Positions 35,020-56,775 of a stretch of DNA of 64,000 nt are shown here, in pieces (the first letter of the stretch is position 1; every line of letters starts with the position of its first letter). The notes under the pieces were generated by a model. That model was not told the origin of the DNA and ran no database searches. It saw only the letters and a program-made list of their open reading frames with translations. A program made the translations under genes and the position numbers. This stretch comes from a virus (lineage: Duplodnaviria; Heunggongvirae; Uroviricota; Caudoviricetes): the IMG/VR virus record IMGVR_UViG_3300044693_000272; one strand, written 5' to 3'.

Positions 35020-35292
35020 TCAACTGCTGACTATGTCGGTGAATGTTAGCCTAAACTGCATTGCTACAACATCATCTTTGAAGTGAACGGTTGATGCCAA
35101 CCACACATATTCATCGCTGGTGGCATTGTTCAGCAACCAATCTGTAGCTTCAGCTATGAGCTGCTTTTGCTCAGTTGTATTGCGCATGAGTTTGAACTTG
35201 AACGGAAACAATCGTTTGAGCATCACTTCACTACTATCGGTTGATTTCCTGTCCAACGATTGCAGTAATTCAACCCATTCAATGGCATTCAT
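35020..35292 (-). CDS. C-terminal FKLTWG-motif family member (90 aa)
   Basis: Ends VVAMQFRLTFTDIVSS. Confidence 0.45.
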   Translation of the reverse strand: MNAIEWVELLQSLDRKSTDSSEVMLKRLFPFKFKLMRNTTEQKQLIAEATDWLLNNATSDEYVWLASTVHFKDDVVAMQFRLTFTDIVSS

Positions 35293-35567
35293 CAGTGTTC
35301 ATATCCATACGTTAGTTTGAACTGCAATGCTTCCATCTCATTTTCGAAAAAGTAATACAAACCCGGTGGCACTGGCTGTTCTTCCCACGTATAGGGAGAA
35401 TCTACATTTTCATCCAACCAAGTATATCGCTCGAATACTTCACCAGCCGTTTTGGGCGGACGGCACTGTACTACGAAGTTGATGGGCCATTTGAAATCTT
35501 TAAAATGAAAATGCCAGACCATCCGATCAACATCCGACATTTCAGCAAGCCATGTACTGTATTTCAT
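35292..35567 (-). CDS. C-terminal FKLTWG-motif family member (91 aa)
   Basis: Ends EMEALQFKLTYGYEH. Confidence 0.5.
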   Translation of the reverse strand: MKYSTWLAEMSDVDRMVWHFHFKDFKWPINFVVQCRPPKTAGEVFERYTWLDENVDSPYTWEEQPVPPGLYYFFENEMEALQFKLTYGYEH

Positions 35568-35884
35568 TATTCAACACCGTACATGAGCTTGAACATTGCT
35601 GCATCACCAAGGTCCTCGAAACACCAGATTGCATTTATGCCAGGTGCTGAAGTGACAATAGCACCAAACTGCCCGCTAGTATTATTATCAAGCCATTCAT
35701 CCAAGTCTTTTGTTTTGTAGCCTTTCGAGCGGAAGTTGTCTCGATGAATGTTGGTAAGCACCACGTAGCCATCAGGAACAAACTCGAGATCGTCAACGCC
35801 TCGAATGATTCCTGGCCAAAAGGCGTTCGGGATTTTCGCGTTTTCGAGCACTGCTTCAAGCTTTTGCACTTGACTACGCTTCAT
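35567..35884 (-). CDS. C-terminal FKLTWG-motif family member (105 aa)
   Basis: Ends GDAAMFKLMYGVE. Confidence 0.5.
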   Translation of the reverse strand: MKRSQVQKLEAVLENAKIPNAFWPGIIRGVDDLEFVPDGYVVLTNIHRDNFRSKGYKTKDLDEWLDNNTSGQFGAIVTSAPGINAIWCFEDLGDAAMFKLMYGVE

Positions 35885-35940
35885 GTTAATCTCCTGCTAT
35901 CATCTATCTAACCAAATGATAGCTTCATATGAAGGCAAAA

Positions 35941-36282
35941 TCAAGCACACCAGGTGAGTCTGAAGCCAATAGCGTCGGTTTCTCGTTCAAATCCCCAAAG
36001 GCGACACTTTAAACCGAATAGGATATCAGGATTTGCCACTTCAACGATAGCACCGTAATCATCGGACCAGCGAACGATATCGTGTTTCGAAAAATAGCGT
36101 AAGCCATTTGCCTGGTCAGTTTTCAATTCGTCTGTCATCCGATCATACGCTTCATAGCTTTGAATAACAAAATATTCAACATTTGGTCCCTCAAATGAGT
36201 GAGCAGTTGAATGCTCAACTCTAGTTTTAGTTTCATTGATCGCCCGATCAATTGCCATTTTCATCAATTCATCATATTTCAT
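35941..36282 (-). CDS. C-terminal FKLTWG-motif family member (113 aa)
   Basis: Ends TDAIGFRLTWCA. Confidence 0.5.
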   Translation of the reverse strand: MKYDELMKMAIDRAINETKTRVEHSTAHSFEGPNVEYFVIQSYEAYDRMTDELKTDQANGLRYFSKHDIVRWSDDYGAIVEVANPDILFGLKCRLWGFERETDAIGFRLTWCA

Positions 36283-36283
36283 A

Positions 36284-36634
36284 TCAGCACCAAGTTAGTT
36301 TGAATAAAACAGCATCATGTTCATTCTGGAAACACAGCAACCTTGAAATACCAGAGCCAATCCGTTCTGTTGCTTGCTCGATTCTTAATACTGAAAACCG
36401 ACCACTCATGTTTTGATGAAGCCAATTCATAATTGAGCCATCGAATTTTTTACGTTCAGACATGATTTTTTCAAGATGTTTGAAATTAAAAATAAAAAAT
36501 GCTGTTGGATTATAATCAAACATATTCACTTTTGTTTCAAACAACTTGATAATATGGTCTCGATCGGCTTCTTTCTTTTGGACATCATCCCTAGCATTAT
36601 AATGCTCACTAATAACGTCGTGAAGTGTTTTCAT
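36284..36634 (-). CDS. C-terminal FKLTWG-motif family member (116 aa)
   Basis: Ends HDAVLFKLTWC. Confidence 0.5.
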   Translation of the reverse strand: MKTLHDVISEHYNARDDVQKKEADRDHIIKLFETKVNMFDYNPTAFFIFNFKHLEKIMSERKKFDGSIMNWLHQNMSGRFSVLRIEQATERIGSGISRLLCFQNEHDAVLFKLTWC

Positions 36635-36894
36635 TTTTCTAGCGCCAATTTACAAGCAATTGCATCTGCCATAGATTCAAAATAAATGGCATTACAAAAT
36701 ATTGGTTTAAAATATGCGCCAGCCGTATTTTTAATGAACCACTCTAGGTTCTCGCGCACTAGGGCAGAAGCCGCCACTCCTTTGGTACGCAGCACACAAG
36801 CTGGTGTGAATTTGAGTTTGTTGTAGACGCGACGCCGAACTTCCTGATTTTGCTCAGTAATGAAGTCGTGAACGGTCATGATGATCAATTGCAT
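36631..36894 (-). CDS. divergent C-terminal-motif family member (87 aa)
   Basis: Ends MADAIACKLALEK. Confidence 0.4.
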   Translation of the reverse strand: MQLIIMTVHDFITEQNQEVRRRVYNKLKFTPACVLRTKGVAASALVRENLEWFIKNTAGAYFKPIFCNAIYFESMADAIACKLALEK

Positions 36895-36960
36895 ATGAAA
36901 TAAGGGGAACGCTGTTCCCCTTATTGTAGCACCGTTTGGTGAGTTAGTGCCAATTCTGGC

Positions 36961-37320
36961 TTAGTGATTCGTATTAACCTTGCCCTTTGCAAGATCGCTA
37001 TAGAAGTGCTTCGTGACATCTTGTACGAGACGCGGACACAGCGTCATTTGCATCGTTGCCGAGAGAATCGGCGTGTATACGTCACCACCATCCGTGCGGC
37101 CACCAATCTTTTCGGCCCACTTTTCCATGACCTTACCCATCTCGCTGAGATAACGCGTCTTGAACTTCAGCTTGCCGTTGCGGCGACCCCAGAAGTTGAC
37201 CAACTTACCGTCGATCTTAGCAATTCCCCAGATTTTATCGTTGCTTGCTGCACCGCCTGCGTTGCCACGTGCGCCTTCGTTGTAGAAGTGACCAAACTTG
37301 ATGATTTCGACGTTTGCCAT
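36961..37320 (-). CDS. WGR-domain protein (about 119 aa)
   Basis: Start trimmed to MANVEIIKFGH; KLVNFWGRRNGKLKFKT plus downstream A...F...K..KG pattern fit the WGR domain. Confidence 0.55.
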   Translation of the reverse strand: MANVEIIKFGHFYNEGARGNAGGAASNDKIWGIAKIDGKLVNFWGRRNGKLKFKTRYLSEMGKVMEKWAEKIGGRTDGGDVYTPILSATMQMTLCPRLVQDVTKHFYSDLAKGKVNTNH

Positions 37321-37541
37321 TTCGATCTCCTGTAAAGTTTGTTGCGTTGTCTTCACTGCTTACCATGTATCACATTCTAGGTTCATCTAAAGATGGCGTC
37401 AAGCAAATTTAAGGAGATTTTTAGATAAACTCGATCACGTCGATAGTTACAGTGCAAGCTGAATTGTGTGCCTCAAAGTGATTTATGTAGCCTAATGAAA
37501 GGTGGTGCAAGCAAAACTCGCACCACCTGGTTGCAAGGTTT

Positions 37542-37835
37542 TTAGTAAGGGCCGCTCAAGTCACCAATATCTTCTAGTTCAGTTGAACTAAGATGCTCGA
37601 TACGATCATTGAAAGCCCACAGGGTGGCGCCGTAACGCACGCCTTCGTTGCTAATAGCAGACAAATACAAAGTTTCATGCCTACCTTGCTGCTGCATTCT
37701 GAAATCGTTTCCGAGCCAGTCAATAAGCAGTTTTCGCACATCTTTAGGGTCGATGCTGCTCACTGTACCCACAAAGTCATGAGCGCCGCCAGGGCCCACT
37801 TGCCCGTCCGAAACCTTAATGAATACTAGCACCAT
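37542..37835 (-). CDS. hypothetical protein (97 aa)
   Basis: AGGGAGTTCGT SD. Confidence 0.5.
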   Translation of the reverse strand: MVLVFIKVSDGQVGPGGAHDFVGTVSSIDPKDVRKLLIDWLGNDFRMQQQGRHETLYLSAISNEGVRYGATLWAFNDRIEHLSSTELEDIGDLSGPY

Positions 37836-37899
37836 ACGAACTCCCTATTCATTTACCATATTCTTATGGTAAATTCAAATGAGCAAGAAGTAAAGCGTT

Positions 37900-38028
37900 T
37901 TCAACGGCCGTAAAATTCATGTTCTCTTGAGGCAGGAAACTCATATTTCATGTTTTTCACCATCAAGGGAATTAGCATAAAAACAACAAAACCGATACCG
38001 AACAGTAACCCAATCAACAAATCGTACA
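37900..38028 (-). CDS. very small hydrophobic protein (42 aa)
   Basis: Not in ORF track; GGGGG SD then ATG; MYDLLIGLLFGIGFVVFMLIPLMV. Confidence 0.3.
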
Positions 38029-38080
38029 TATAAACCCCCTATCATTCTATGTACGATTATTTTAAATATGGATCAAATCT

Positions 38081-38398
38081 TCAGCACCATGTTAGTTTGA
38101 ATATGGCTGCGTCTGCTTCATCTTGAAAGCACCACAGCTCATAAATTGGAGACTTGACTTCCGATGTCAAAAACGCAGCAAACGCACCACGCACATTATT
38201 GCCACACCATTCATGTATGCTCTGAACGTAGTCGGAGCGGCGCTTGCGATGTGTCTCGGAAAACACGACGAATGCTTTTGGCTTGAAGGGAAGGTTCTTG
38301 ATGTCTTTGCAGAAATTTTCCTCTTCGTAGTCACGGCTGCTCCACTGTGTAGGTTTGCAGCCATAAAATTCGTTTAATGTTTCACTAAGCGTCTTCAT
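38081..38398 (-). CDS. C-terminal FKLTWG-motif family member (about 105 aa)
   Basis: Start at internal MKTLSETL; ends ADAAIFKLTWC. Confidence 0.45.
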   Translation of the reverse strand: MKTLSETLNEFYGCKPTQWSSRDYEEENFCKDIKNLPFKPKAFVVFSETHRKRRSDYVQSIHEWCGNNVRGAFAAFLTSEVKSPIYELWCFQDEADAAIFKLTWC

Positions 38399-38777: not shown

Positions 38778-38887
38778 ATTTGCTTCATGATTACAGCACT
38801 TTCGCAGCCATCATTTCGTCAACATGACTTCATGAATGTCGAAACCGACCACATCAATGCGATCAAAACGGCTGATAGTAGGCTTAT

Positions 38888-39097
38888 TCATTCTATCACA
38901 GTCGCATATTTGCAGAACAGTGATTGAAAGACGAGCTTCTCACCACCTTGACTATCCCGCATTAGAACATGCGGTTTGTCATATGCAGTTCCATTCTCAC
39001 GGTGAGTTCTCACTCCCACGAAAGTGACGCGTTTATATGCGCCATATGAAACGGGAGTACCATCCGGAAGTGCTTTTAGTTGTTCTACAGTGATCAT
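38888..39097 (-). CDS. hypothetical protein (69 aa)
   Basis: ACAGGAGCG SD. Confidence 0.5.
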   Translation of the reverse strand: MITVEQLKALPDGTPVSYGAYKRVTFVGVRTHRENGTAYDKPHVLMRDSQGGEKLVFQSLFCKYATVIE

Positions 39098-39166
39098 TTT
39101 CGCTCCTGTCGAATGCCATACTCATATAGTATATTCATATTAGTACGGCATCAACAGGTAAATGAA

Positions 39167-40307: not shown

Positions 40308-40377
40308 ATGGATATAAAATCAAGCATCAAATGAATGATGACCGCTTTTGGGCGGTCATCATGTTGTGTGTTATTGC

Positions 40378-41441: not shown

Positions 41442-41460
41442 CTTTATTCTCCTTGTTTGT

Positions 41461-41510
41461 TTACCATGTTCAAATGATATGCTCATCTGAACATGATTGC
41501 AAGCACTTTT
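41461..41510 (-). promoter_or_regulatory. conserved promoter/operator element: -35 TTGCAA (41497-41502), -10 TATCAT (41474-41479)
   Basis: Consensus copy. Confidence 0.55.
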
Positions 41511-43323: not shown

Positions 43324-43875
43324 TTACTCTTGTGTGCTGGAGGGAATAGTGGTCGTTGGGTACGGCCAGCTAAAAGGAGCCGTGTTGGTTGGCGCAGTCT
43401 GAGCCGGTGGCGTTTCGGGAGCCTTTGATTCGGCCTTGGGTTTTCCCTTAGCTTTACCAGCTGCTTTCGGATCCTCAGCCTTCGGCTCCGCAACTTCGCC
43501 ATCAGCTTCGTCATCGACCTTCGCAATGCGGTAGTCGATCTTGCCTTCAGCAAGCGCTGCTTCATACTTTTCGCAAAGCTCTTGCGAGAAGTTGGTCCCA
43601 AGCAGCTCAGCCTGCTTGTCGGCATCGAGATCATCGTGCTTCAGCTTCTTTGCATCAGTGCCATCTAGCTTCTGCTGGTACAGCTTGAGCGCTGCTTCGA
43701 GCTCGCTGATCGGTTCTTGTTTGAACCTAATCGATCCGCCGCGCCGCCCGAAGAACTTGATGACTGCCTCATCAGTGCGCATCAGCCCCCAGAGAGAATC
43801 CTTTTTCGGCTTGTCGTTAGCAAACTTACCCTTGATGAAGGCATGACCAACTTTAAGAATGACCAAGTTACTCAA
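43324..43875 (-). CDS. WGR-domain protein with Lys/Ala/Pro-rich H1-like tail (183 aa)
   Basis: MSNLVILKVGHAFIKGK ... VIKFFGRRGGSIRFKQE ... then AEPKAEDPKAAGKAKGKPKAESK tail. Confidence 0.55.
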   Translation of the reverse strand: MSNLVILKVGHAFIKGKFANDKPKKDSLWGLMRTDEAVIKFFGRRGGSIRFKQEPISELEAALKLYQQKLDGTDAKKLKHDDLDADKQAELLGTNFSQELCEKYEAALAEGKIDYRIAKVDDEADGEVAEPKAEDPKAAGKAKGKPKAESKAPETPPAQTAPTNTAPFSWPYPTTTIPSSTQE

Positions 43876-44605: not shown

Positions 44606-44821
44606 TCAACCAAAAAGCATCACAAAAAACATAATGACGAGAACAACAGCGGAAATCATTGCAATAATTACAATCACCCAAGCACAAATATCAACGCCAT
44701 TAATGCTATGACCCTCAGCAGAGGCATGGCCACCGCCACCATGACCTCCACCTCCGCCACCCCCTCGTGCGAAGGCAACAGTAGCAAACAGCTTCAAAAG
44801 CACAGCAAGAAATCGTTTCAT
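44606..44821 (-). CDS. small Gly/His-rich membrane protein with signal peptide (71 aa)
   Basis: N-terminal signal peptide, GGGGGGGHGGGGH tract, C-terminal TM helix. Confidence 0.45.
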   Translation of the reverse strand: MKRFLAVLLKLFATVAFARGGGGGGGHGGGGHASAEGHSINGVDICAWVIVIIAMISAVVLVIMFFVMLFG

Positions 44822-44882: not shown

Positions 44883-45173
44883 TTATTTGGTTACTTCGTT
44901 TAAAATCACGTCGAGTGCTTTGAGAAATTCGTCCGAAAGCATTTGATCAGAGCCACGCATCAGTTTCACTGTGATGATGGCATCTTCGAGAGGAGAGTTT
45001 TTGTATTCGACACCGTTCCAATTTGCAGCAGCACCAATCTGAGTTTCGTGAGGAGCCGCTTGATGCCCGCAATAATGGCACTTGGCAAAGAATTTGCCAA
45101 TTTGATGTATATGAATCGTTTGGGTATTCTTGCAGTTGGGGCAAGCATTGAGATTGAGGGACACGTTTTTCAC
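44883..45173 (-). CDS. zinc-ribbon protein (96 aa), apparent GTG start
   Basis: CPNCKN ... CHYCGH. Confidence 0.4.
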   Translation of the reverse strand: MKNVSLNLNACPNCKNTQTIHIHQIGKFFAKCHYCGHQAAPHETQIGAAANWNGVEYKNSPLEDAIITVKLMRGSDQMLSDEFLKALDVILNEVTK

Positions 45174-46831: not shown

Positions 46832-47941
46832 TCATTCACTTGGAGTGACTATCAAACTTTTCTGATTGAACTTTGAATCAACCCAAGAATTGATTCGTTT
46901 ACGTATTGGTGTCTCTACTCGCATATTGAGAATATGTGCTGAGACAATTGATAATGTAATATACAACACAGCAGCAATTACACGTTCAATAGTACCTGTT
47001 GTTATGGCAATAAACGTCGCAAAAGCCATAACTATGGCGGCATGGCTCAAATATAATGAATAAGAAATTCTACCCAAATATTGAGCAAAGCGACTATTGA
47101 GTAAAAGTGTCACTGGTCCGTTATTCATAGTTAGTGTCGCTATGAATAATGCAAACAATAATGGCGCAACACATGCTAAGCCTGGAATGCTATCAGCGAT
47201 TAGAATAAAGAGTAATGTACCGGTAAATATCGCTAATTGTATATTTGGTTTACAAAGACTGATCACAAATCGATGATTGCGATATTCGGCAAGCAGAGCA
47301 CCAATGAAGAAGCCAACTAGACCGCGTCCCCATCCAAAGTAATAGGTTTGTTCAAAACATCCGCCCTTAGTCAAACATGAACTAACAATTATCGACTGCC
47401 ATAAAGCAATCGAATAACCAAAAAGAGCAAATGCGATAAACGCAGCCGTTCTAATTTTTCCATGTAGGGAAATACAGAGTAGTGCGAATATACAGTAGAT
47501 CCAAAATTCAACACTGGCACTCCAACTTACTGCAATACCAATTACATTCGTGATAGCCAAACCTTGAAGAAACGTCGCAACACCTAATAGTTGAATAATG
47601 CTTGGTAATCGATATTCATGAAAGCTTGCGAGATATTGTAAGAAAAAATAAATGAAATTCGCAATCATGAATGCTGGCCACAATCTCCCAATTCGACGCA
47701 ATATAAAAGCACCAAAATCAGAATTATTTCTCAGCTTCGCTTTATATGAATCATATATTACGAAACCACTCAATACGAAGAACAAATCAACAGCCAAATA
47801 ACCGTTCTTTGAAAAAGAAAAGAAACTTGCGGCAGCACGAGAATTCGGTACAGCTTGCAATGACATATAAACATGAAGGAAGACAACAATTAAAGCGGCA
47901 AACCCGCGCAAGCCTTCAAGGCTATGAAGTCGGCCGCCCAT
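46832..47941 (-). CDS. acyltransferase family 3 integral membrane protein (OafA/YrhL-like)
   Basis: LEGLRGFAALIVVFLHV ... FFVLSGFVI plus about 10 TM helices; GAGGAGATGACAT ATG. Confidence 0.65.
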   Translation of the reverse strand: MGGRLHSLEGLRGFAALIVVFLHVYMSLQAVPNSRAAASFFSFSKNGYLAVDLFFVLSGFVIYDSYKAKLRNNSDFGAFILRRIGRLWPAFMIANFIYFFLQYLASFHEYRLPSIIQLLGVATFLQGLAITNVIGIAVSWSASVEFWIYCIFALLCISLHGKIRTAAFIAFALFGYSIALWQSIIVSSCLTKGGCFEQTYYFGWGRGLVGFFIGALLAEYRNHRFVISLCKPNIQLAIFTGTLLFILIADSIPGLACVAPLLFALFIATLTMNNGPVTLLLNSRFAQYLGRISYSLYLSHAAIVMAFATFIAITTGTIERVIAAVLYITLSIVSAHILNMRVETPIRKRINSWVDSKFNQKSLIVTPSE

Positions 47942-48527: not shown

Positions 48528-48923
48528 TTATGCTTCAGCTTCAGCAGCCTTGCGGGCGCCCTTCGTCGAACGCGTGTTCACCTTGCCTTCACGCACAGCC
48601 GCGTAGTAGCCCTTGCTTACATCTTCGACGATCGACGGGCACGTTTCCTTGATCCCCTTCGCGCTCGACACGTCGACGTACTTGATGCCCTTCACGTCCT
48701 TGCCGGCCAGCTTTTCTTCGAACAGTGCCAGCGCTTCGTCGAGTGCGGCCTTCTTTTCCGTCTTGAAGCGCAGCTTGCCACCACGACGGCCGTAGAACTT
48801 GACGAGTGCGTTGCCGACGTATGCGATACCCCAGACGCTGTCCTTCGACGGCTTGCCACCCTTTTCGCCGCGTTCGCCTTCGATCAGTGCGTGACCCAGC
48901 TTGATGATTTCGACCTTTGCCAT
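48528..48923 (-). CDS. WGR-domain protein (131 aa)
   Basis: MAKVEIIKLGH ... LVKFYGRRGGKLRFKTEKKAALDEALALFEEKLAGKDVKGIKY reproduces the WGR core and C-terminal KGY. Confidence 0.6.
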   Translation of the reverse strand: MAKVEIIKLGHALIEGERGEKGGKPSKDSVWGIAYVGNALVKFYGRRGGKLRFKTEKKAALDEALALFEEKLAGKDVKGIKYVDVSSAKGIKETCPSIVEDVSKGYYAAVREGKVNTRSTKGARKAAEAEA

Positions 48924-49073: not shown

Positions 49074-49334
49074 TTAATTGTACGTAAAGTCGAACAGGAG
49101 AGCATCTCGCACCTCTTCAAAAACCACAACTAACATATTGTCAGTAGGAATGTGATGAGTCCAAAACTTACCTACACACTGCTCAACTAGATTGGCTCTG
49201 AGCTCTTCAATAGTCTGATTGCCCATCAAGACCATAAAATTGCATTCATCTAACGACAAGTTACCAATTGTTGTGGCCATATAGGCTGCACGTTTTGCTA
49301 TTTTGTCTGTTGTATTTTTGCAACTGTATATCAT
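49074..49334 (-). CDS. C-terminal-motif family member (86 aa)
   Basis: Ends VRDALLFDFTYN. Confidence 0.45.
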   Translation of the reverse strand: MIYSCKNTTDKIAKRAAYMATTIGNLSLDECNFMVLMGNQTIEELRANLVEQCVGKFWTHHIPTDNMLVVVFEEVRDALLFDFTYN

Positions 49335-49335: not shown

Positions 49336-49635
49336 TTATTGGCCGAATGTTAGATAGAACGCCAAAGCATCGTTGTATTTTTCATACATAGTGACAACGA
49401 CCATACCGAACTGTCGCCAGTTCAATTTGATTTTTTGTTCCTTGTGCCAAAGCCTTACAGCCTGATCTCGCTCAGACTTAACGAGACCGTCAGACATGAC
49501 TATATACCCTGACGGTAGTTTGTTAACTTCTTCGAAGTCCGCCCTTAATGACTGGCGAATCACATATTCGACAGCACTGTGCAATTCATCATCTTTCATG
49601 GCGAACCATCTTTCCATTTCACGAATAATAGCCAT
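49336..49635 (-). CDS. C-terminal-motif family member (99 aa)
   Basis: Ends NDALAFYLTFGQ. Confidence 0.5.
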   Translation of the reverse strand: MAIIREMERWFAMKDDELHSAVEYVIRQSLRADFEEVNKLPSGYIVMSDGLVKSERDQAVRLWHKEQKIKLNWRQFGMVVVTMYEKYNDALAFYLTFGQ

Positions 49636-49638: not shown

Positions 49639-49929
49639 TTAACCCCAAGTCAGGAAATAGTTCAGCGCGTCTTGGTAGTTCGAGAATAAACCAAGTACGG
49701 TTGTTTTGAGCAGTATTATTGAATAATCATACTCAATATTGAGCTTTGCCCAACGGCGAGATGCCATTATATTACTATTGGTAATGGCAATGTCTACAGC
49801 ATATAGATACATATGGAATTCAATGGCTTCGCGATCATCAACTATGCGTTGACGAAACAGTTCATGTGAGCCACTTATATGCTCCTCACTGCCATTCTTG
49901 ATCCAATCTTGAACTGTTCGAAGTGGCAT
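49639..49929 (-). CDS. C-terminal-motif family member (about 96 aa)
   Basis: Start at internal MPLRTV; ends QDALNYFLTWG. Confidence 0.45.
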   Translation of the reverse strand: MPLRTVQDWIKNGSEEHISGSHELFRQRIVDDREAIEFHMYLYAVDIAITNSNIMASRRWAKLNIEYDYSIILLKTTVLGLFSNYQDALNYFLTWG

Positions 49930-49930
49930 A

Positions 49931-50203
49931 TCAGCACCACGTAAGGTAGAATGCCAAAGCATTTTTGTAGTCAGTGAAGAAACACATCATCACATTTAGC
50001 TTGCCATCGAGCGTGAAACAACCGTCATATTCATTTTTGACGGTATCGATTATATGTGTAAAGCTGTTTGGCAAATCAAATGTAACAACATATGGATGGT
50101 TCTTCTTTGAAGAGCGATAGTGTTCTATTAATAGATTGGCACGCTTGCCCTGTTCGGGCCCTTCAATATCCAACCATTCTTTTGTTGTTTGTAATTTAGC
50201 CAT
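49931..50203 (-). CDS. C-terminal-motif family member (90 aa)
   Basis: Ends KNALAFYLTWC. Confidence 0.5.
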   Translation of the reverse strand: MAKLQTTKEWLDIEGPEQGKRANLLIEHYRSSKKNHPYVVTFDLPNSFTHIIDTVKNEYDGCFTLDGKLNVMMCFFTDYKNALAFYLTWC

Positions 50204-50213
50204 GCTGACACCA

Positions 50214-50537
50214 TCACACTTTGTCGCCGTGTGTCATGTAAAACTTGATTGCGTCAATTTCGCGTTCGAAAAACACGGCCATAACGCCGCTACCGTTCTT
50301 CGTACGCATTATTGGAAGTTGGTCTCCCTCGCACTCGGATTCAAGCCATTCGCATAGCTCGATCCATGTCCAACGACGTTTGGAATCGAACATGATGATC
50401 ATTGCACACGCGATGTGAAATTCAGCTGATTCGATACCATTCTTGAACCAGCTACCGGCCTCGTGTAAGTCACCGTATAGCTTATCGAGCTTACTCAGCT
50501 CGTTGAAGACGTGTGGTTTGAATATTTGTGCATTCAT
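50214..50537 (-). CDS. C-terminal-motif family member (107 aa)
   Basis: Ends IDAIKFYMTHGDKV. Confidence 0.5.
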   Translation of the reverse strand: MNAQIFKPHVFNELSKLDKLYGDLHEAGSWFKNGIESAEFHIACAMIIMFDSKRRWTWIELCEWLESECEGDQLPIMRTKNGSGVMAVFFEREIDAIKFYMTHGDKV

Positions 50538-50731
50538 TTTGCTGGATATGGGCTAAACCATAACCCCTCATGTTGTTTGTTTAACTTACCAGCCCTGTAC
50601 AATGCTCCCTGTTCGCTATATCCGATGAATGCTTCCTCCGAATTTGGGCTGAGCCATTTTTCACCTGCCTTACCTGTGTAATACAGAGTTTCGCCCTTCT
50701 GATTCTGGACCATAATGCCATGCGTGCTCAT
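50534..50731 (-). CDS. hypothetical protein (65 aa)
   Basis: ATGA-coupled to downstream gene. Confidence 0.45.
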   Translation of the reverse strand: MSTHGIMVQNQKGETLYYTGKAGEKWLSPNSEEAFIGYSEQGALYRAGKLNKQHEGLWFSPYPAK

Positions 50732-50790
50732 GTGATTCTCCGACTTTCGTAGTACAAGAACTCACATGATACGTTCATATGAACCGTAAG

Positions 50791-51066
50791 TCAACCCCAA
50801 GCCAGCAACCAGGCAACCGCATCAGTTTCATGCTGAAAATAAATTGCTGGTGGTATGAAATCTACTGCTGGGTTGAAACCGATCTTCCCCTTCACATTTT
50901 CAGTGCGCCAATCAGGATCCACTTCATAGAAGTGATCGTGTTTATCAGATAGTAATACTGAGCCAGGAAGGAAACGAACATTTCCCATTGTTCGAGACAT
51001 CCAGTTTCGAACTCGATCTTCGCCATATCTGGCTTGGAAGGCTGCGAATGAGAGTAACTGCATCAA
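50791..51066 (-). CDS. C-terminal-motif family member (91 aa)
   Basis: Ends TDAVAWLLAWG. Confidence 0.45.
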   Translation of the reverse strand: MMQLLSFAAFQARYGEDRVRNWMSRTMGNVRFLPGSVLLSDKHDHFYEVDPDWRTENVKGKIGFNPAVDFIPPAIYFQHETDAVAWLLAWG

Positions 51067-51305
51067 TCACCTTTCTTACCAAGTCGTATGACAAAGCGAT
51101 CACCAAACTTTTCAATCTCGAAAGTTTCTCCCTGAAAATAACTTATGTAGTCGGCGGGAACTTCAAGCTTCATTTCGGTTTCATAGACCGAGGTGTACGG
51201 TTGATAACCGTACCGATCATTTTCGGCTGTTGTAATTACTTCGATCTGGGTGTCTTCAGGAAATTGATCCAACCAGCGTTGCAATTCGACTCGAGTAGTC
51301 ATCAT
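51063..51305 (-). CDS. hypothetical protein (80 aa)
   Basis: ATGA-coupled. Confidence 0.45.
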   Translation of the reverse strand: MMTTRVELQRWLDQFPEDTQIEVITTAENDRYGYQPYTSVYETEMKLEVPADYISYFQGETFEIEKFGDRFVIRLGKKGD

Positions 51306-51362
51306 AATCTCCTGAAGTAATCATGCTCATATGGTACGTTCATATGAGCATGATATCAAGAG

Positions 51363-51641
51363 CTATGCGACCAAATGAACCGTAAGATAATCTATAAAGC
51401 TTTTGAAATACACTTGATATGGTCTTCTATCATTAGATCGCTCACAGATCACATCGCCGCGCAATCCTCGATATAAAAGGTGAAAAGCATGGTTATCGAA
51501 CCTAAAACCTTCGCTGAAAGTCAAACGAACAATGACTTCAGGTTTGAAACCATGCTCTAGTTCAAAGTCATGAATCTTCTGTTGACGACCCAGAAAGGCA
51601 AGTGTGGGATCGAGATATTCTTCAAGAGTCCAAGCAATCAT
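51363..51641 (-). CDS. divergent C-terminal-motif family member (92 aa)
   Basis: Ends FIDYLTVHLVA. Confidence 0.4.
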   Translation of the reverse strand: MIAWTLEEYLDPTLAFLGRQQKIHDFELEHGFKPEVIVRLTFSEGFRFDNHAFHLLYRGLRGDVICERSNDRRPYQVYFKSFIDYLTVHLVA

Positions 51642-52150
51642 ACATTCGCCCGATCTGCTAACGCCTGAAGAACAAATGGGTGAATGTATTTTGCCACTTT
51701 TTCTTCCCAGTTGTTAATTCCGACAAACCCTCGCACAGCTGATGAGCTGATACGCGTGATATCTTCGGGAGGAATTACAAAGACATGGTCGATGCTATTT
51801 TCAATATCTGCGTTGAAACCCTGAATATCTTTCTCGTAACCAAAGTCAACAGCATTGCGAATGCCACGCATGATGGTGGTAACACCTAGATGCTTCGCCA
51901 CGCTGACCGTGAATTCATTTTCAATCACTACAAACTTCAACTTTTCGAACAGCTCAGATGTGAGTGAGTCAGCCAACACTCGCCGTGCCAGTTCCTCACG
52001 TTCGATCGAATTGAACATTCCCTTCTTTGCTGGATTGTAAGCAATCGCAAAGTAGACTTCATCGAATGTGCGACAAGCACGCTCGACCATCCATTCATGC
52101 CCTCGTGTGATTGGATCGAACGACCCAGTAACCATACCGATCGTATACAT
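51638..52150 (-). CDS. CoaD-like nucleotidyltransferase (phosphopantetheine adenylyltransferase family)
   Basis: GSFDPITRGHEWMV matches the (H/T)xGH motif GTFDPITNGH; RGIRNAVDFGYE matches RGLRAVADFEYE; start chosen at the ATG that TAATG-overlaps the upstream stop. Confidence 0.6.
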   Translation of the reverse strand: MYTIGMVTGSFDPITRGHEWMVERACRTFDEVYFAIAYNPAKKGMFNSIEREELARRVLADSLTSELFEKLKFVVIENEFTVSVAKHLGVTTIMRGIRNAVDFGYEKDIQGFNADIENSIDHVFVIPPEDITRISSSAVRGFVGINNWEEKVAKYIHPFVLQALADRANV

Positions 52151-53385
52151 TAGACCCAACGCTCCCATTTCTTGATAAGTGTGTCCAAGTTTGCACGTGC
52201 ATTATCTTCGAGATGTGCAAAGTGCGATGATTGAAAAACTTTTGGTCGACGCAAAAATGTCTTCAATACAGAAACCCGGCCTCTAGCAAATGTTCGAATT
52301 TCATACTCATTTTTGAACTCCTGATATACTGCGTCATCAAATGCTTCAGCCTCCTCGGGAGTTCCACCCAACATCATCAAGTCCACATCAAGAAACAATT
52401 CACAATCGTTTTTCAACTTAGGATTGGCTTTCAAGAAATGCGAAGAAGCCGAATGCGTTTTCGTACTCATGATGTATTCAGCAGCAACTGCGAGTGATGG
52501 GATACCATCTTCAATTTCAAATCGCAATGCTTCTGGCATAATTGCTTTGAATTGATCAATCATGAACTTAACGCTTTGAGATTCATTATGTGGATACAGA
52601 GTCTTATACGTACTGTATACCACATCATGATAGATAATCGCAATACCGGCAATGCTAGGATAGTTGAATTTGTCAAGATTCGACATAAACCATCGATACA
52701 TAGCAAGTGGGTGATCTGCATTATGCCAGTGCCGATCAAAACCGTGATATTGTTTCATCGCATTGTCGAACAATTCACCAGCTTCCTTTTCTTTTTTGTA
52801 AAAAGCGCTTTGGAAGAATAAACGTAGATCTTTTCGAGCAATGTTACCAGCAATGCGTTTAGCTTCAGTTTCAAGCTCTTCAAGCGAAACATTAGTGTCA
52901 ATTGTTTCATCCGACATTGCCGACTTCACAATAGTACTGAGTTGCGCACCACGAATCTTTGCGATTTTTTCGGCAGTGAAGCCATCACGTGCAATCACAC
53001 GTTTTTCTTGCGTCTCATCGTCGCACATACACGTGATGATGAAATCGTATTTGTCATTATTGCACATTTCAAACAACAGAGGAAATTCAACTACGATGTG
53101 ATTCTGACTGTCGATTTTTATCATTCGCAACCGCATGTGCGTTTTCACCAAATCTTCAAGCCATTTACGTTGCTCTGGGTCGTTGAATACGATATCCGAT
53201 ATTTGCTTGCGATCATCCGTTCCGAATTGTTCCTTCAGTTCTTTAGCAAATTCGGTGTTCTTATAAAGCTCGTGAACCATCTCATCGATGCTTGCTTGAG
53301 TGTAATTTGGTGTAAGATGTTTCACCAATAGTTTCGTGAATGTGGATTTTCCACAGCCAATGTTACCGGTAATCGCGATCCGCAT
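52150..53385 (-). CDS. two-domain protein: N-terminal CoaE-like P-loop kinase and C-terminal HD-domain phosphohydrolase
   Basis: MRIAITGNIGCGKSTF is a Walker A as in dephospho-CoA kinase (LTGGIGSGKST); C-terminal RHWHNADH ... IIYHDVVYS ... DVDLMMLG carries the HD-domain His/Asp pattern. Confidence 0.55.
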   Translation of the reverse strand: MRIAITGNIGCGKSTFTKLLVKHLTPNYTQASIDEMVHELYKNTEFAKELKEQFGTDDRKQISDIVFNDPEQRKWLEDLVKTHMRLRMIKIDSQNHIVVEFPLLFEMCNNDKYDFIITCMCDDETQEKRVIARDGFTAEKIAKIRGAQLSTIVKSAMSDETIDTNVSLEELETEAKRIAGNIARKDLRLFFQSAFYKKEKEAGELFDNAMKQYHGFDRHWHNADHPLAMYRWFMSNLDKFNYPSIAGIAIIYHDVVYSTYKTLYPHNESQSVKFMIDQFKAIMPEALRFEIEDGIPSLAVAAEYIMSTKTHSASSHFLKANPKLKNDCELFLDVDLMMLGGTPEEAEAFDDAVYQEFKNEYEIRTFARGRVSVLKTFLRRPKVFQSSHFAHLEDNARANLDTLIKKWERWV

Positions 53386-53483
53386 TGATGCTCCTTTATT
53401 CGTTTTTGATGATCAAGCTACCATAAGCCATTCATTTATTCATTGTATGACAAATCATACCAAATGTAAAGCCGCCAAATGGC

Positions 53484-53510
53484 AGATGGCCCCATATGGG
53501 GCCATCTTTT
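53484..53510. terminator. hairpin of the GATGGCC family after the ligase-like gene
   Basis: agatggcccc-atat-ggggccatct then TTTTAC. Confidence 0.45.
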
Positions 53511-53515
53511 ACAGC

Positions 53516-54085
53516 TTAGTACGGAAAGTCAGCTTTCTTGATTTTCACAAGGCGACCATCTTCGTGATGCCAAACAATGCCTTCGATAGGCTTGTCTCGC
53601 AACCATTCTTTGATGCCATCAAACGTGCGCGGGCAATCTTCTAAGATATCCTTACCGTGAGGAACAAGAATGTGTTCGGTCAAACCTTCAGGATTAGCAC
53701 CGTGACGTGTCCCAATTTTGGGACCACACGCTTCATATGTGCCATCAGGGATTCCACCGGCAAACTTGTTCTTCTGCGCCCATTCGACAGCTTCTCGAAT
53801 GTACTTCGATTCCGGGCCTTCAGCGGGAACCCAACCAGGCCAGTGCCCGCTTTTCGGATCAGGGTTAGGTTGGGCAGGAATGAAGTCAACGGGAGGTGTT
53901 CTCCCAGTCTTAGCGTCGTAACGCTTAAAGACTTGACCATCCTTTACCAACACAGCCACGCCATCCCATTTACGAGTAGCGTAACCTTCACCCTGAACAA
54001 CCCATTCAGCACCCGGAGTAACTTCGTCACGAACCTTACGATCCCCTTCGTAGTTACGTTGAAACAACGACATGATTTTCTTCAT
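53516..54085 (-). CDS. minimal covalent nucleotidyltransferase (ATP-dependent RNA/DNA ligase-like)
   Basis: Start trimmed to MKKIMSLFQ (AAGGAGCAGTTC ATG); ATRKWDGVAVLVKDG is motif I (KxDG), EGIVWHHEDGRLVKIKK resembles motifs IV/V. Confidence 0.55.
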   Translation of the reverse strand: MKKIMSLFQRNYEGDRKVRDEVTPGAEWVVQGEGYATRKWDGVAVLVKDGQVFKRYDAKTGRTPPVDFIPAQPNPDPKSGHWPGWVPAEGPESKYIREAVEWAQKNKFAGGIPDGTYEACGPKIGTRHGANPEGLTEHILVPHGKDILEDCPRTFDGIKEWLRDKPIEGIVWHHEDGRLVKIKKADFPY

Positions 54086-54136
54086 GAACTGCTCCTTAAA
54101 AGTGATGAGATAGTTTTCGAGTCCCATCAACGCCAC

Positions 54137-54200
54137 CTTAAGGTTTACTGCAACTACTAAGCCATATTGTATTGCAAGTACACTATGGCGTCAAACACTT
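54137..54200 (-). promoter_or_regulatory. sigma70-like promoter variant: -35 TTGACG, 17 nt, -10 TACAAT, upstream of the ligase-like gene
   Basis: Reverse complement of 54140-54185 reads TTGACGccatagtgtacttgcaaTACAAT. Confidence 0.4.
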
Positions 54201-54206
54201 TTGCGC

Positions 54207-54524
54207 TTATTCTCCTGCCTTCTTAACAGACCAGAGGTTCTTCGAATTTCCCCTTACCCACATACGGTTACCATCTGTGCAATCGATCACCACTTCATAC
54301 GCGTAATCATGCGTATGGTGAGCCCTGACAAAAGCAACCACCCCTTCTTTGACGACCTTATTGGAAGCCTTATATCGCACTGTGCAGCCAGCAGAATAAC
54401 CGGAAAGCTCGGCGTGTCCTTGGGCGTAAGCTTCACGCAGTTCACCGCGCCGTTGCTCCAGATCTCGGATCTGTTGGTTAACTGCATTCAGTTCATCATC
54501 AATTGCGCCAAGTTCTTGCCGGTT
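54207..54524 (-). CDS. hypothetical protein (about 105 aa; start MNRQELG)
   Basis: Promoter-motif artefact trimmed; probable coiled coil. Confidence 0.5.
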   Translation of the reverse strand, partial: NRQELGAIDDELNAVNQQIRDLEQRRGELREAYAQGHAELSGYSAGCTVRYKASNKVVKEGVVAFVRAHHTHDYAYEVVIDCTDGNRMWVRGNSKNLWSVKKAGE

Positions 54525-54546
54525 CATACTAGACTCCGTGTTTGTT

Positions 54547-54598
54547 TTACCATGTTCAGATGGTACATTCACCTGAACATGGTTACAAGCACTTTTTA
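54547..54598 (-). promoter_or_regulatory. conserved promoter/operator element: -35 TTGTAA (54583-54588), -10 TACCAT (54560-54565)
   Basis: 10-bp inverted repeat CCATGTTCAG ... CTGAACATGG brackets the -10 hexamer. Confidence 0.5.
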
Positions 54599-55066
54599 GC
54601 ACTTGACCTCGAATGATGCACCGTACTGCACAACCACAAACGTGACACGAACAGAAGTGCGCGTTTCTGCCTCCTTCTCCGTTTCCGCATCGCCGATGAA
54701 GTCGATAGCAACGTTCACACCAATTCCCGCGAGACGTTTGATTGCCGAGAAATTGATGTCGAAATCATCGAAGCCATGCACTTGCGATTGTGGCACGATG
54801 TATTGGCGCATACGCAGCAGAAGTTCGTCGATTTCTTCTTTGCTGTAGAGCTTTCCGAACGCCTTTTCGGAATCCAGGAAAACATGGTTGAACATCGAAC
54901 AAAAAGGAGCGTCAGGCAAGACTTCCTTGTATGCTTGGCAAAGCTGGCGAATGAGCTCGTCGTTCTCGGACAAATAGCTGAGCACCGTGCAGAGATTATC
55001 GAAAGTCTCGATACCCAGTGCGGCTTCGAACTGATCTTTGGTTGCGTTGATGTCGGCGATACGCAT
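54596..55066 (-). CDS. hypothetical protein (about 156 aa; start MRIADINA)
   Basis: CAGGAGCAAACAA ATG. Confidence 0.5.
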   Translation of the reverse strand: MRIADINATKDQFEAALGIETFDNLCTVLSYLSENDELIRQLCQAYKEVLPDAPFCSMFNHVFLDSEKAFGKLYSKEEIDELLLRMRQYIVPQSQVHGFDDFDINFSAIKRLAGIGVNVAIDFIGDAETEKEAETRTSVRVTFVVVQYGASFEVKC

Positions 55067-55181
55067 TTGTTTGCTCCTGTTGTTAACCATAATCATATGG
55101 TAAGTTCAAATGAACAAAACATCAACACCAGAAATGACGATGGCTAGGGTAAAACCTAGCCATTGTATTACGCGTTACTGC

Positions 55182-55679
55182 TTACGCAGCAGCCTTATCG
55201 GCCTTTGCCGCCTTCTTGGCTGCCTTTTCGGCTGCCGCAGCGGCAGCCGCCACCGAAGCTTGCGTCGGGAACGCGAACACCTTCTTCGGGTTCGGTGCCT
55301 TGTACTTCGGAGCTTGCGGCTTCGTCGAACGCGTGTTCAGCTTGCCGTTGCCCATCGCCTTGTAGAACATCTTGCCGAGGTTTGCTTCAAAATCGGCACC
55401 GAGCGTTTCGACCTGAGCCGCAGCATCGAGATCCTTATACGCAAAACCCTTGTCCTTGCCCGTCAGCTTTTTCGCGTAAAATGCGAGTACGCTTTCGAGT
55501 GCATCTTTCTTGTATGTCTTGAAACGCAGCATGCCACCACGGCGGCCACCGAACGTCACGAGGTTGCCTTGTACCTTTGCCACACCGAACACGCTGTCCT
55601 TCGACGGAGCACCACCGTTATCACCACGCTTGCCAGCGATCAGTGCATGACCAACACGCAGAATTTCGACCTTTGCCAT
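55182..55679 (-). CDS. WGR-domain protein with Ala/Lys-rich tail (165 aa)
   Basis: MAKVEILRVGH ... LVTFGGRRGGMLRFKTYKKDALESVLAFYAKKLTGKDKGFAY; tail AAAAAAEKAAKKAAKADKAAA; AGAGGAGATTACAA ATG. Confidence 0.6.
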   Translation of the reverse strand: MAKVEILRVGHALIAGKRGDNGGAPSKDSVFGVAKVQGNLVTFGGRRGGMLRFKTYKKDALESVLAFYAKKLTGKDKGFAYKDLDAAAQVETLGADFEANLGKMFYKAMGNGKLNTRSTKPQAPKYKAPNPKKVFAFPTQASVAAAAAAAEKAAKKAAKADKAAA

Positions 55680-55896
55680 TTGTAATCTCCTTTAAAGTTT
55701 TTACCATTTTGCAGTGCTTTCTTTGCACTGCGCGTCTACCATGTATCACATTCTGTGTTCATTTGATACTTGAGTCAACAGCTAAATGAACAAATTTTTC
55801 AACTTTTTGATTCGTTGCTTTGATGCAACATGGCGGAAAACCACTTTGACAAGAGATTGTCAGTGTAAAATGGCAACCTATTATGTGAGGATCGAT

Positions 55897-56163
55897 ATGA
55901 TCGGATTTTTGATTTTGTTTCTTGTGATTACGCTTGCGGCCGTATGCGTCGCATACTTACCGATTTGGCTCGGTGTGCTTATCGTTGTGCTGTACGTATT
56001 TGGTATTGGTGCAACGTTTGGAGTGTTCCGACACTTAGTGACTGGGGATGGTACTCTCAGCGGGGATGATGAGCTTGATTTTTGCTTGATTATGTTGTGG
56101 CCGTTGACCTTGTTTGTTACGATTGCCTATCGATGTGGTTTACTGATAGCCAAGCTGTTTTAA
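55897..56163 (+). CDS. small membrane protein (about 88 aa), plus strand
   Basis: GAGGA SD before the internal ATG; three hydrophobic helices. The ORF-track start at 55786 is less likely. Confidence 0.35.
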   Translation: MIGFLILFLVITLAAVCVAYLPIWLGVLIVVLYVFGIGATFGVFRHLVTGDGTLSGDDELDFCLIMLWPLTLFVTIAYRCGLLIAKLF

Positions 56164-56165
56164 TT

Positions 56166-56492
56166 CTATTCATATTCGTTACCAAACCTGAAGTAGAATG
56201 CAAGTGCGTCTGAATGATGTTTGAAGAAGTAATAGCCCATAGCACTCACCGCAGTATATCCTAAGCGTGCATGGGGATATTGCTTTACCACTTTATGCTG
56301 AACATTGTCTAGCAGCCACTCGAACATGGTATAAACCGCAGCGTTCTTTGTCACATCGTTGCCCGTGATAGACACCAGATAAAAGGGGACTTCGTCAAGG
56401 GTATTGATGCGCTGGCGTACTGCTTTCTTGATGTCTTTGTCGAACTGGTTCAAAAACGCTTCGACATCAGTTATTTCGACAATGCTAGACAA
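56166..56492 (-). CDS. C-terminal-motif family member (108 aa)
   Basis: Ends SDALAFYFRFGNEYE. Confidence 0.5.
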   Translation of the reverse strand: MSSIVEITDVEAFLNQFDKDIKKAVRQRINTLDEVPFYLVSITGNDVTKNAAVYTMFEWLLDNVQHKVVKQYPHARLGYTAVSAMGYYFFKHHSDALAFYFRFGNEYE

Positions 56493-56775
56493 AGCGATCT
56501 CCCCACGTTAGGTAAAACTGCATAGCATCGACGTGGCTTTGAAAGAAAAACATGCCAACGGCAATGTCGGAAACATAGTCGTCCTTTGTATTTTCTTTCA
56601 ACCAAGATATTACTTCATCTTGATTGCTTGTCGTCCAATTTCTTATATCCAGATCAACAAGATATATTGGTTTCTTAAACGAACGCAAGCTTGCTTTGAT
56701 GACTCCCCTTTCAACATAAAATGTTGAAAGGAATGTATTTAGCGAACCTTCGTCGAGCTCTTCAATAACACTCAT
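56485..56775 (-). CDS. C-terminal-motif family member (96 aa)
   Basis: Ends VDAMQFYLTWGDRFV. Confidence 0.5.
   Translation of the reverse strand: MSVIEELDEGSLNTFLSTFYVERGVIKASLRSFKKPIYLVDLDIRNWTTSNQDEVISWLKENTKDDYVSDIAVGMFFFQSHVDAMQFYLTWGDRFV

Follow-up and report, generated by a model that had tools for sequence, protein, structure and literature searches.

We examined a 64,000-nucleotide stretch of viral DNA (IMG/VR record IMGVR_UViG_3300044693_000272, Caudoviricetes), referred to in the following as the window, in which an earlier note, made from the sequence, had described 16 small paralogues with a common C-terminal motif at positions 35020–56775. Fifteen minus-strand genes in this range, encoding proteins of 86–116 amino acids (aa), form a true paralogue family according to leave-one-out profiles and hidden Markov models (HMMs) built from external relatives. 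The family is real and diversified, as the note had stated, and has no description in the curated libraries or among the solved structures that we searched. The best explanation that we can offer, argued partly by analogy and held tentatively, is that these are small, soluble, non-enzymatic, early-expressed and diversified binders, serving as inhibitors or adaptors of different host or phage macromolecules.

Family membership and the conserved domain

Membership was tested by leaving out one candidate at a time, realigning the others, building an HMM and searching all 524 open reading frames (ORFs) of ≥40 aa in the window. The E-values ranged from 1.5e-11 to 1.6e-3 across the 15 genes (38081–38398 is listed at 5.6e-16), and all non-members ranked below each of them. 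An HMM built only from 90 external relatives matched 15 of 15, with E-values from 8e-18 to 2e-6. The C-termini of the ORFs named in the earlier note read as quoted there, and their similarity goes beyond composition: a strict regular expression for the C-terminal motif matched 11 window ORFs, compared to a mean of 0.014 in 500 residue shuffles, and the profile tests agree. The members are listed below with strand, length and the E-values of the leave-one-out and external HMM searches, in that order.

35020–35292 (−): member, 90 aa, ends in ...VVAMQFRLTFTDIVSS; 3.3e-4, 4.8e-8
35292–35567 (−): member, 91 aa, ends in ...EMEALQFKLTYGYEH, identical to external relative P0001; 2.5e-7, 1.4e-13
35567–35884 (−): member, 105 aa, directly behind a weaker promoter-like site; orthologues P0007 (66% identity), P0021 (44%) and P0041 (38%); 8.8e-9, 4.7e-15
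35941–36282 (−): member, 113 aa, ends in ...ETDAIGFRLTWCA; 4.2e-5, 2.2e-7
36284–36634 (−): member, 116 aa, ends in ...EHDAVLFKLTWC; this protein is also encoded on Logan and JGI metagenome contigs; 4.7e-11, 1.6e-13
36631–36894 (−): member, 87 aa, with a partly degenerate motif (...MADAIACKLALEK); 2.6e-5, 6.5e-8
38081–38398 (−): member, 105 aa; orthologues P0023 (54%) and P0082 (47%), which have the N-terminus MKTL.ETLNEFYGCKPT in common with it; 5.6e-16, 8.2e-18
49074–49334 (−): member, 86 aa, with the weakest motif (...VRDALLFDFTYN), at the end of an operon with five members; 1.6e-3, 2e-6
49336–49635 (−): member, 99 aa; syntenic orthologue (44%) in a 524-kb relative; 4.2e-5, 2e-7
49639–49962 (−): member, 107 aa (96 aa if the start is at 49929); 2.1e-5, 2e-7
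49931–50203 (−): member, 90 aa, ends in ...YKNALAFYLTWC; orthologue P0149 (77%); 4.7e-6, 2.9e-7
50214–50537 (−): member, 107 aa; syntenic orthologue (68%); 1.2e-7, 9.6e-13
50791–51066 (−): member, 91 aa; syntenic orthologue (63%); 1.7e-6, 3.9e-8
56166–56492 (−): member, 108 aa; orthologues in the syntenic 524-kb contig (41%) and P0033 (42%); 4.1e-8, 8.2e-12
56485–56775 (−): member, 96 aa, the protein that was modelled; 1.5e-11, 4.2e-16
28600–28971 (−): distant member outside the range, 123 aa, with a basic C-terminal tail and a pI of 9.9; external HMM 1.1e-5
51363–51641 (−): doubtful or degenerate copy, 92 aa; leave-one-out E 110

For 38081–38398, the true start is the ATG at 38398 (the protein begins MKTLSETLNEFYG...) and not an upstream TTG, in agreement with the 105-aa gene call in L001.

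In total there are therefore 15 solid copies in the range, plus a distant one outside it and another that is doubtful; no window ORF beyond the 15 and 28600–28971 scored with the family profiles. The distant member carries WLRENAKG and EDAAKIKLSF, was the top non-member in 15 of 16 leave-one-out runs, and aligned to the 90-sequence family profile with an hhalign probability of 94.9% (E 4.5e-8). The doubtful ORF, 51363–51641, is probably the sixteenth member of the earlier note, since it is needed to extend a cluster to 51.6 kb; it had an hhalign probability of 0.65% and did not match the HMM of the 90 external relatives. Thus, the count of 16 stands for 15 genes, and the four clusters (35.0–36.9, 38.1, 49.1–51.6 and 56.2–56.8 kb) are placed as described except for the extension to 51.6 kb. 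This ORF may be a decayed copy, as suggested by its syntenic counterpart in the 524-kb relative (L055 15443–15742), which ends in ...SDAMQFYLALD and is a clear member at 8.9e-6.

A MAFFT alignment revealed a second conserved block, W-[LC]-x-x-N-x-x-G, about 25–35 residues upstream of the C-terminal motif, followed by a hydrophobic strand ending in a near-invariant F and then by D-A-x-x-F-[KY]-L-[TM]-[WFY]-[GC]. Conservation extends over a domain of about 55 residues. The N-terminal divergence noted previously is real, but because of the second motif it covers only about 40–50% of the protein rather than two thirds. Our working definition of a member is a small protein ending in a W-x3-N-x2-G ... 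F-x4-D-A-x2-F-[KY]-L-x-W domain; a match to a profile built without the tested sequence was found for the 15 in-range genes and 28600–28971, and not for 51363–51641. The information-rich positions of the profile are W, N, F, D, A, F, K, L and W, with K often replaced by Y in the window.

AlphaFold2 modelling of 56485–56775 with the 15-sequence alignment gave a pLDDT of 84.8 and a pTM of 0.77. In this model, an N-terminal strand and two helices precede strand 37–41, helix 49–62, strands 67–70 and 75–78, and helix 81–91. External member P0016, modelled with the 90-sequence alignment (pLDDT 88.1), had the same beta-alpha-beta-beta-alpha order after an N-terminal helix, so that two independent predictions agree on the order of elements. 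In the models, the W-x3-N-x2-G block forms the end of helix 1 and the following loop, and the C-terminal motif forms the end of strand 3 and helix 2. In the P0016 model, the N lies where helix 1 ends and the D-A where helix 2 starts; in our reading, the conserved N and D would be helix caps. The family profile contains no conserved His, Cys, Ser or Glu/Asp constellation suited to catalysis or metal binding. An enzyme is unlikely, because the conserved residues are mostly hydrophobic, or polar at helix ends where we read them as caps.

The motif had previously been described as a constant C-terminal anchor. Both models instead place it inside a compact domain, as the last strand and last helix, and since the conserved residues are mostly hydrophobic or capping, it looks like part of the predicted fold core and not like a tether or signal. 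A C-terminal signal or membrane anchor was ruled out, as the motif lies in a confidently folded domain and no hydrophobic transmembrane stretch was seen by eye in the window members.

Foldseek found no match below E = 1 in the PDB, only generic two-layer alpha/beta sandwiches, and the matches among viral models were exclusively uncharacterised proteins of uncultured phages; the earlier remark that the fold could not be recognised was a fair one. The best, weak structural matches were ferredoxin-like/RRM-like and pterin-dehydratase (DCoH)-like alpha/beta sandwiches, which share with the models two helices packed on a small antiparallel sheet in two layers. The predicted fold is a small ferredoxin/RRM-like sandwich without a close relative among solved structures. 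It lacks the features that define an RRM (beta1-alpha1-beta2-beta3-alpha2-beta4 order, with RNP2 on strand 1 and RNP1 on strand 3), and neither a profile match nor a significant structural match places it with DCoH (pterin-4a-carbinolamine dehydratase).

Two alternative functions bear on this fold. The first is that the proteins are RNA-binding regulators, in which paralogues with an RRM/ferredoxin-like domain bind different transcripts, of the phage or the host, and adjust their stability or translation. The beta-alpha-beta-beta-alpha order is like that of an RRM cut short; the weak structural matches include RRM, KH and reverse-transcriptase palm domains; an aromatic residue is nearly invariant at the end of strand 3; the operons have a conserved transcribed leader, TTGAACATGGTAAACAA, in common; and distant member 28600–28971 has a strongly basic tail. 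However, most members are acidic (pI 4.5–6.3), there are no RNP1/RNP2-like motifs and no conserved basic residues apart from one K/Y position, and the canonical fourth strand is missing. We consider such a role improbable. More generally, the members have net charges between about −7 and +4 and pI values of 4.5 to 9.2; a shared nucleic-acid-binding role is disfavoured because charge varies and most members are mildly acidic. A DNA mimic was ruled out, the proteins being merely mildly acidic.

The second alternative is that the proteins are subunits of homo- or hetero-oligomers, with the hydrophobic C-terminal helix as an interface that joins paralogues in mixed scaffolds or shells. In favour of this, helix 2 stands out for its hydrophobicity and in every case lies at the C-terminus or close to it, and tandem two-domain versions exist, such as P0013, P0039, P0043 and P0044. 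The conserved residues are explained equally well by an intramolecular core, however, and co-assembly of this kind seems to us about as improbable as RNA regulation. Neither account displaces, in our opinion, the tentative reading of the proteins as diversified binders.

Searches of Pfam, PHROGs, NCBIfam and PADLOC gave no meaningful family for window members or external relatives. No Pfam SUKH, SMI1_KNR4 or Imm match was found for 10 window members (E ≤0.1), 90 external relatives (E ≤0.01) or 10 further members (E ≤1). The 10 window members scanned had no match in PHROGs, and one of the 90 external members matched phrog_35885, which carries no annotation. PADLOC returned only two marginal matches for 10 members (E 0.005 and 0.009, 13 bits), which do not place them in a defence family, and a sequence profile search of the PDB gave nothing below E 0.57. 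Megablast of 35–39 kb against 50,697 phage records found no match, and no DNA or close protein match of the window was present among these records; tblastn of members and the family consensus against the same records gave only a weak match in phage Phosso (E 0.08) and the self-match of the Phosso member. The paralogues are too divergent for BLAST. A literature search with motif strings and for jumbo-phage paralogue families found nothing relevant in full text. The family's candidacy for an undescribed phage function is therefore supported within the databases and literature searched.

Divergence, distribution and promoters

Proteins identical to those of the window were found on short metagenome contigs. 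A 523,837-bp JGI contig, the 524-kb relative mentioned above, carries orthologues of the 56.2–56.8 kb pair, and its gene order matches that of the window from 44.8 to 63.9 kb: the family pair, a WGR-like gene, an RNA-ligase-like gene, a CoaE fusion, CoaD, a second family cluster and another WGR-like gene. Because of this match, the window is very probably part of a huge phage. The neighbouring genes are well conserved between the two (RNA-ligase-like 89%, CoaD 86%, AdoMet decarboxylase 86%, CoaE 64%, WGR-like 70–73%), whereas family members are at 41–68% or are undetectable by BLAST although a member holds the same position. In this comparison, the family members diverge faster than their neighbours.

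Inside the window, the highest identity between paralogues is 36% (35567 vs. 38081), while orthologues of individual paralogues in other contigs are 36–77% identical. On these identities, the duplications are older than the divergence of these phages, and the individual copies have been kept. When the protein was divided into regions, identity in the N-terminal region was 47% between orthologues and 20% between paralogues, the latter being the noise level of forced global alignments; the corresponding values were 41% and 21% for the central block and 65% and 37% for the C-terminal block. We infer from the sequences that purifying selection probably acts on the paralogue-specific parts. That the N-termini are paralogue-specific yet conserved in orthologues is the strongest evidence that each copy has its own function.

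The metagenome-scale search proposed in the earlier note, with an HMM built from the family, was also productive. When 1.84 billion cluster representatives were scanned in full with HMMER and the 15-member profile, 250 proteins scored at E ≤1e-3, of which the best were window proteins or their close orthologues. The other relatives are 58–245 aa long and have the same two motifs, and the domain mostly ends a few residues from the C-terminus. No fusion partner was found: the longest relatives (163–245 aa) match no Pfam domain, and most of them consist of the family domain duplicated in tandem. A word-indexed homologue search with the 90-sequence alignment returned 13 proteins.

A degenerate DNA pattern for D-A-M-x-F-K-L-T-W located 44 IMG/VR loci, many on contigs of 416–465 kb. 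The HMM revealed large arrays in these loci, with 26 members in 13 kb (L041), 21 in 10.9 kb (L037), 18 in 7.3 kb (L030), 12 (L038) and 11 (L019); in these five largest arrays, paralogues are at most 43% identical. A 417-kb viral contig has at least 56 distinct members within the 50 kb of DNA examined. In the cultured Sinorhizobium phage Phosso (469 kb), 40 kb of sequence hold at least five members, and the first 50 kb of T4 contain no member (best gp46.1 at E 0.027).

In species-representative bacterial genomes, the same DNA pattern gave six loci, about the chance expectation by estimate. Three of the six are clear members (HMM E 2e-15 to 8e-7) from Allosphingosinicella, Novosphingobium and Rhizobium, all Alphaproteobacteria, and the Novosphingobium and Rhizobium copies form small arrays in loci with a GC content of 0.53. 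The Rhizobium locus (L052 2928–5658, Rhizobium sp. 2MFCol3.1, GC 0.53) contains several small genes in a row, with C-termini that resemble increasingly degenerate versions of the motif (...LVAKLRLSV, ...LLAKLSQQ, ...AMLFKLSYGG, ...AMLFKLTWDGG and ...ANEVKLANG); only two of these pass the HMM.

A GNAT acetyltransferase gene directly adjoins a member in Allosphingosinicella vermicomposti (L049 1044–1714) and in Phosso (L048 19854–20656). In the former, the end of the GNAT gene and a 62-aa member share 4 bp, and nearby are two further features recognised by eye, a Sir2-like gene and a ParD/ParE-like pair; in Phosso, the member lies directly upstream of the acetyltransferase gene. A conserved partnership with GNAT was ruled out, as the two enzymes are unrelated beyond their fold (BLASTP E = 3.1), and the adjacency may be a coincidence.

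These loci bear on a narrower version of the explanation that we prefer, in which the proteins are immunity- or antitoxin-like neutralisers and each copy is directed against a single toxin, for instance an effector of abortive infection or of a polymorphic-toxin system. Poly-immunity loci reportedly have the same architecture, with small alpha/beta paralogues that have diverged strongly and stand in tandem, the Rhizobium and Novosphingobium copies lie in low-GC islands of presumably foreign origin, and the copies in Allosphingosinicella and Phosso adjoin GNAT genes, the former near the ParD/ParE-like pair. On the other hand, the immunity-family searches described above were negative for window members and the 90 external relatives, no toxin-domain gene adjoins the window arrays among the ORFs scanned, and the two GNAT neighbours have no specific relationship. 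We regard this version as unlikely and return in the following to binders with more varied partners.

The window contains a 53-nt repeat with the gene-sense consensus AAAACgCTTGAcACCATGTTCAaaTGAACtTATCATtTGAACATGGTAAACAA, consisting of TTGACA, a 17-nt spacer, TATCAT and the conserved leader. A position matrix (threshold 18; maximum score of shuffled sequence 1.2) found 42 minus-strand sites and a single one on the plus strand. Those on the minus strand lie within 185–59517, for example at 2866–2918, 18333–18385, 31210–31262, 41457–41509 and 54543–54595. From its sequence, the repeat is a predicted sigma-70-type promoter, which would point to early transcription dependent on the host polymerase. 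It contains an inverted repeat (CCATGTTCA ... TGAACATGG) flanking the −10 element, which could be an operator for a phage repressor. Family members acting as transcription factors for the 42 promoters were ruled out, the proteins being acidic and having no recognised DNA-binding fold.

The suggestion that most copies have their own promoter was not borne out. The 15 genes use about six sites, in operons with 1–5 members, and only 35567–35884 and, outside the range, 28600–28971 lie directly behind one. The sites and the genes that follow them are:

37357–37409 (−): promoter repeat, then a WGR-like gene, a hairpin, 36631, 36284 and 35941; matrix score 24.4, TTGACG-17-TAGAAT
35912–35944 (−): weaker promoter-like site, a copy of repeat family D4, then 35567, 35292 and 35020; TTGATT-17-TATCAT, below the matrix threshold
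39109–39161 (−): promoter repeat, then two unrelated genes and 38081–38398 as the third, by gene order; matrix score 24.9
50749–50801 (−): promoter repeat, then 50534–50731 and 50214, 49931, 49639, 49336 and 49074; matrix score 18.4, D4 reference copy at 50762–50794
51314–51366 (−): promoter repeat, then 51063–51305 and 50791–51066; matrix score 49.0
57005–57057 (−): promoter repeat, then a small gene (stop 56772), 56485 and 56166; matrix score 44.8
28991–29043 (−): promoter repeat directly upstream of distant member 28600–28971; matrix score 40.7
36905–36920 (−): terminator-like hairpin between the WGR-like gene and 36631–36894, GGGGAACAGCGTTCCC then CTTATTTCAT

The hairpin may attenuate transcription into the three downstream members.

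The repeats also raise the possibility that the family is dispensable filler, in which recombination between promoter repeats duplicates small genes that then drift without a function for each copy. The 42 near-identical 53-nt repeats could promote unequal recombination, other small paralogue families occur in the same window, and at least one copy, 51363–51641, has probably decayed. Against this, all 15 reading frames are intact, orthologues are kept at conserved positions in the 524-kb relative, their paralogue-specific N-termini are conserved, and recent duplicates are absent at the identities given above (≤36% in the window, ≤43% in the other arrays examined). Filler is a very improbable explanation, and we return to the tentative proposal of diversified binders.

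Proposed function

In the proposed mechanism, each protein would have two parts, the ~55-residue conserved domain and a paralogue-specific N-terminal segment of 30–50 residues. The domain core would be built by W-x3-N-x2-G in helix 1 and by F-x4-D-A-x2-F-[KY]-L-x-W in strand 3 and helix 2. This constant core would be a mere stable scaffold. Partner choice would lie in the variable N-terminus and surface, through which each paralogue would bind a different macromolecule; host proteins, defence and toxin effectors among them, are the most plausible partners. Made early in infection, the products of the array would then act in parallel as neutralisers or modulators of the host. Early expression would fit the position of the operons behind sigma-70-like promoters. 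A set of binders fits because the conserved core is mostly hydrophobic, charge is variable, there is no known partner domain, the N-termini are conserved, the family is expanded and the promoters are of host type. The family genes also lie in a long same-strand run of small genes (between 34 and 58 kb, nearly all plausible genes are on the minus strand), near a gene whose orthologue has a weak match to Lar. From these features we infer when the proteins are made, that they are binders and what kind of targets they have.

Several points weigh against this proposal. The case for binders is made by elimination and analogy; the fold models are predictions, and the burial of the conserved residues is presumed; and the early timing is read only from promoter sequence. 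Single or few copies occur in alphaproteobacterial genomes, so that the domain may have an ordinary role in the cell. Turnover is also slower than a fast arms race predicts, with orthologues at 36–77% identity and an array that is syntenic with the 524-kb relative. Ordinary early accessory roles are as compatible with the data as are host takeover, anti-defence or superinfection exclusion.

A bolder form of the proposal is that this is a hyper-expanded scaffold family of huge phages, with tens of copies per genome, which constitutes a modular counter-defence or host-manipulation arsenal. One 55-residue fold, repeatedly re-surfaced and fitted with paralogue-specific N-terminal arms, would neutralise many host effectors. 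We find this doubtful on present evidence. If true, it would be the phage counterpart of the multigene families of large eukaryotic DNA viruses and of bacterial poly-immunity loci, and it would explain part of the "extra" coding capacity of 400–500-kb phages. Beyond the binder reading and the four alternatives weighed above, some probability is reserved for explanations other than those considered here.

Most genes of huge phages are without a known function, and here one family recognisable by a profile accounts for a noticeable fraction of them, roughly a tenth of the genes in the window by a rough count. Dozens of isolated unknown genes are thereby turned into one tractable question. The handles on it are a confident fold prediction, a constant core set against paralogue-specific N-termini, a cultured carrier in Phosso and single-copy bacterial homologues. 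If the members bind host proteins specifically, they would supply a wealth of new inhibitors directed at bacterial defence or physiology, as well as an example of accordion-like family expansion in phages; if not, the family would still be among the larger uncharacterised phage protein families.

Neighbouring genes and comparison with known systems

A second paralogue family, also on the minus strand, is found at:

36961–37356 (−): WGR-like gene
43324–43875 (−): WGR-like gene
48528–48923 (−): WGR-like gene with a sub-threshold Pfam WGR match (E 0.011)
55182–55679 (−): WGR-like gene

These proteins begin with MAKVEI.K.GHA and contain F-[WYF]-G-R-R-G-G-K-L-R-F-K-T. Their orthologues in the 524-kb relative are 70–73% identical, and three of the four copies adjoin clusters of the main family. 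Three further paralogue pairs (BLASTP E <1e-5), 15217–15657/45611–45970, 25400–25684/25693–25965 and 21673–22269/23348–23959, indicate that gene duplication is general in this genome region.

Other features of the window are:

51638–52168 (−): CoaD-like cytidylyltransferase
52150–53385 (−): dephospho-CoA kinase (CoaE), with a C-terminal extension of ~240 residues weakly like a phage metal-dependent phosphohydrolase
53516–54136 (−): RNA-ligase-1-like
3660–4559 (−): arginase-family gene (Pfam E 2e-56)
58495–58863 (−): 86% orthologue of a gene annotated as AdoMet decarboxylase in the 524-kb relative
44883–45173 (−): small CxxC...CxxC protein, whose 68% orthologue in the 524-kb relative has a weak Pfam match to Lar restriction alleviation
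46832–47941 (−): 369-aa membrane acyltransferase (Acyl_transf_3, E 1e-27) among small early-type genes
34512–34964 (−): HNH endonuclease-like gene directly downstream of the first family cluster, preceded by a weak promoter-like site of its own at 34991–35023
44606–44821 (−): 71-aa ORF with a hydrophobic N-terminus, a Gly/His run (GGGGGGGHGGGGH) and a hydrophobic C-terminal segment
14551–14576, 17565–17590 and 40336–40361: perfect palindromes (TGATGGCCTCCA..TGGAGGCCATCA) that look like bidirectional terminator hairpins

The first three genes are kept at 64–89% in the relative. The arginase and AdoMet decarboxylase genes hint at phage-encoded polyamine metabolism. The CxxC...CxxC protein may be an anti-restriction gene product, the acyltransferase might modify the cell surface, and the 71-aa ORF may encode a small membrane protein.

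Three known systems resemble the family in part, and by the tests that we ran it belongs to none of them. Poly-immunity arrays (SUKH/Imm) of polymorphic-toxin systems, described in papers by Zhang, Iyer and Aravind, have reportedly been recruited by DNA viruses. They likewise consist of many very divergent, small, soluble alpha+beta paralogues in tandem, with no catalytic residues, a conserved hydrophobic core and a variable surface, and occur on mobile elements and in viral genomes. The tandem arrangement of divergent paralogues is indeed found here, in the window clusters and in arrays of up to 26 genes. However, the family is without a Pfam immunity or SUKH match, its topology and motifs are distinct, no adjacent toxin gene was found among the window ORFs scanned, and its arrays are in operons behind the sigma-70-like promoters of a huge phage.

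The early regions of T4 and the host-takeover module of SPO1 contain "monkey-wrench" small genes, mostly unrelated to each other and without database matches. As in the window, these are small same-strand genes behind strong host-type promoters, beside genes of nucleotide and RNA metabolism; they are mostly unrelated, whereas here one family is present in at least 16 copies. Among large eukaryotic DNA viruses, multigene families include MGF110/360/505 of African swine fever virus and the ankyrin and BTB-kelch expansions of poxviruses. These resemble the phage family in that one fold occurs in tens of divergent copies, clustered in variable regions, with a varying copy number and a proposed role in host interaction, but they differ in hosts, folds and sizes, the proteins of the phage family being only 60–120 aa long.

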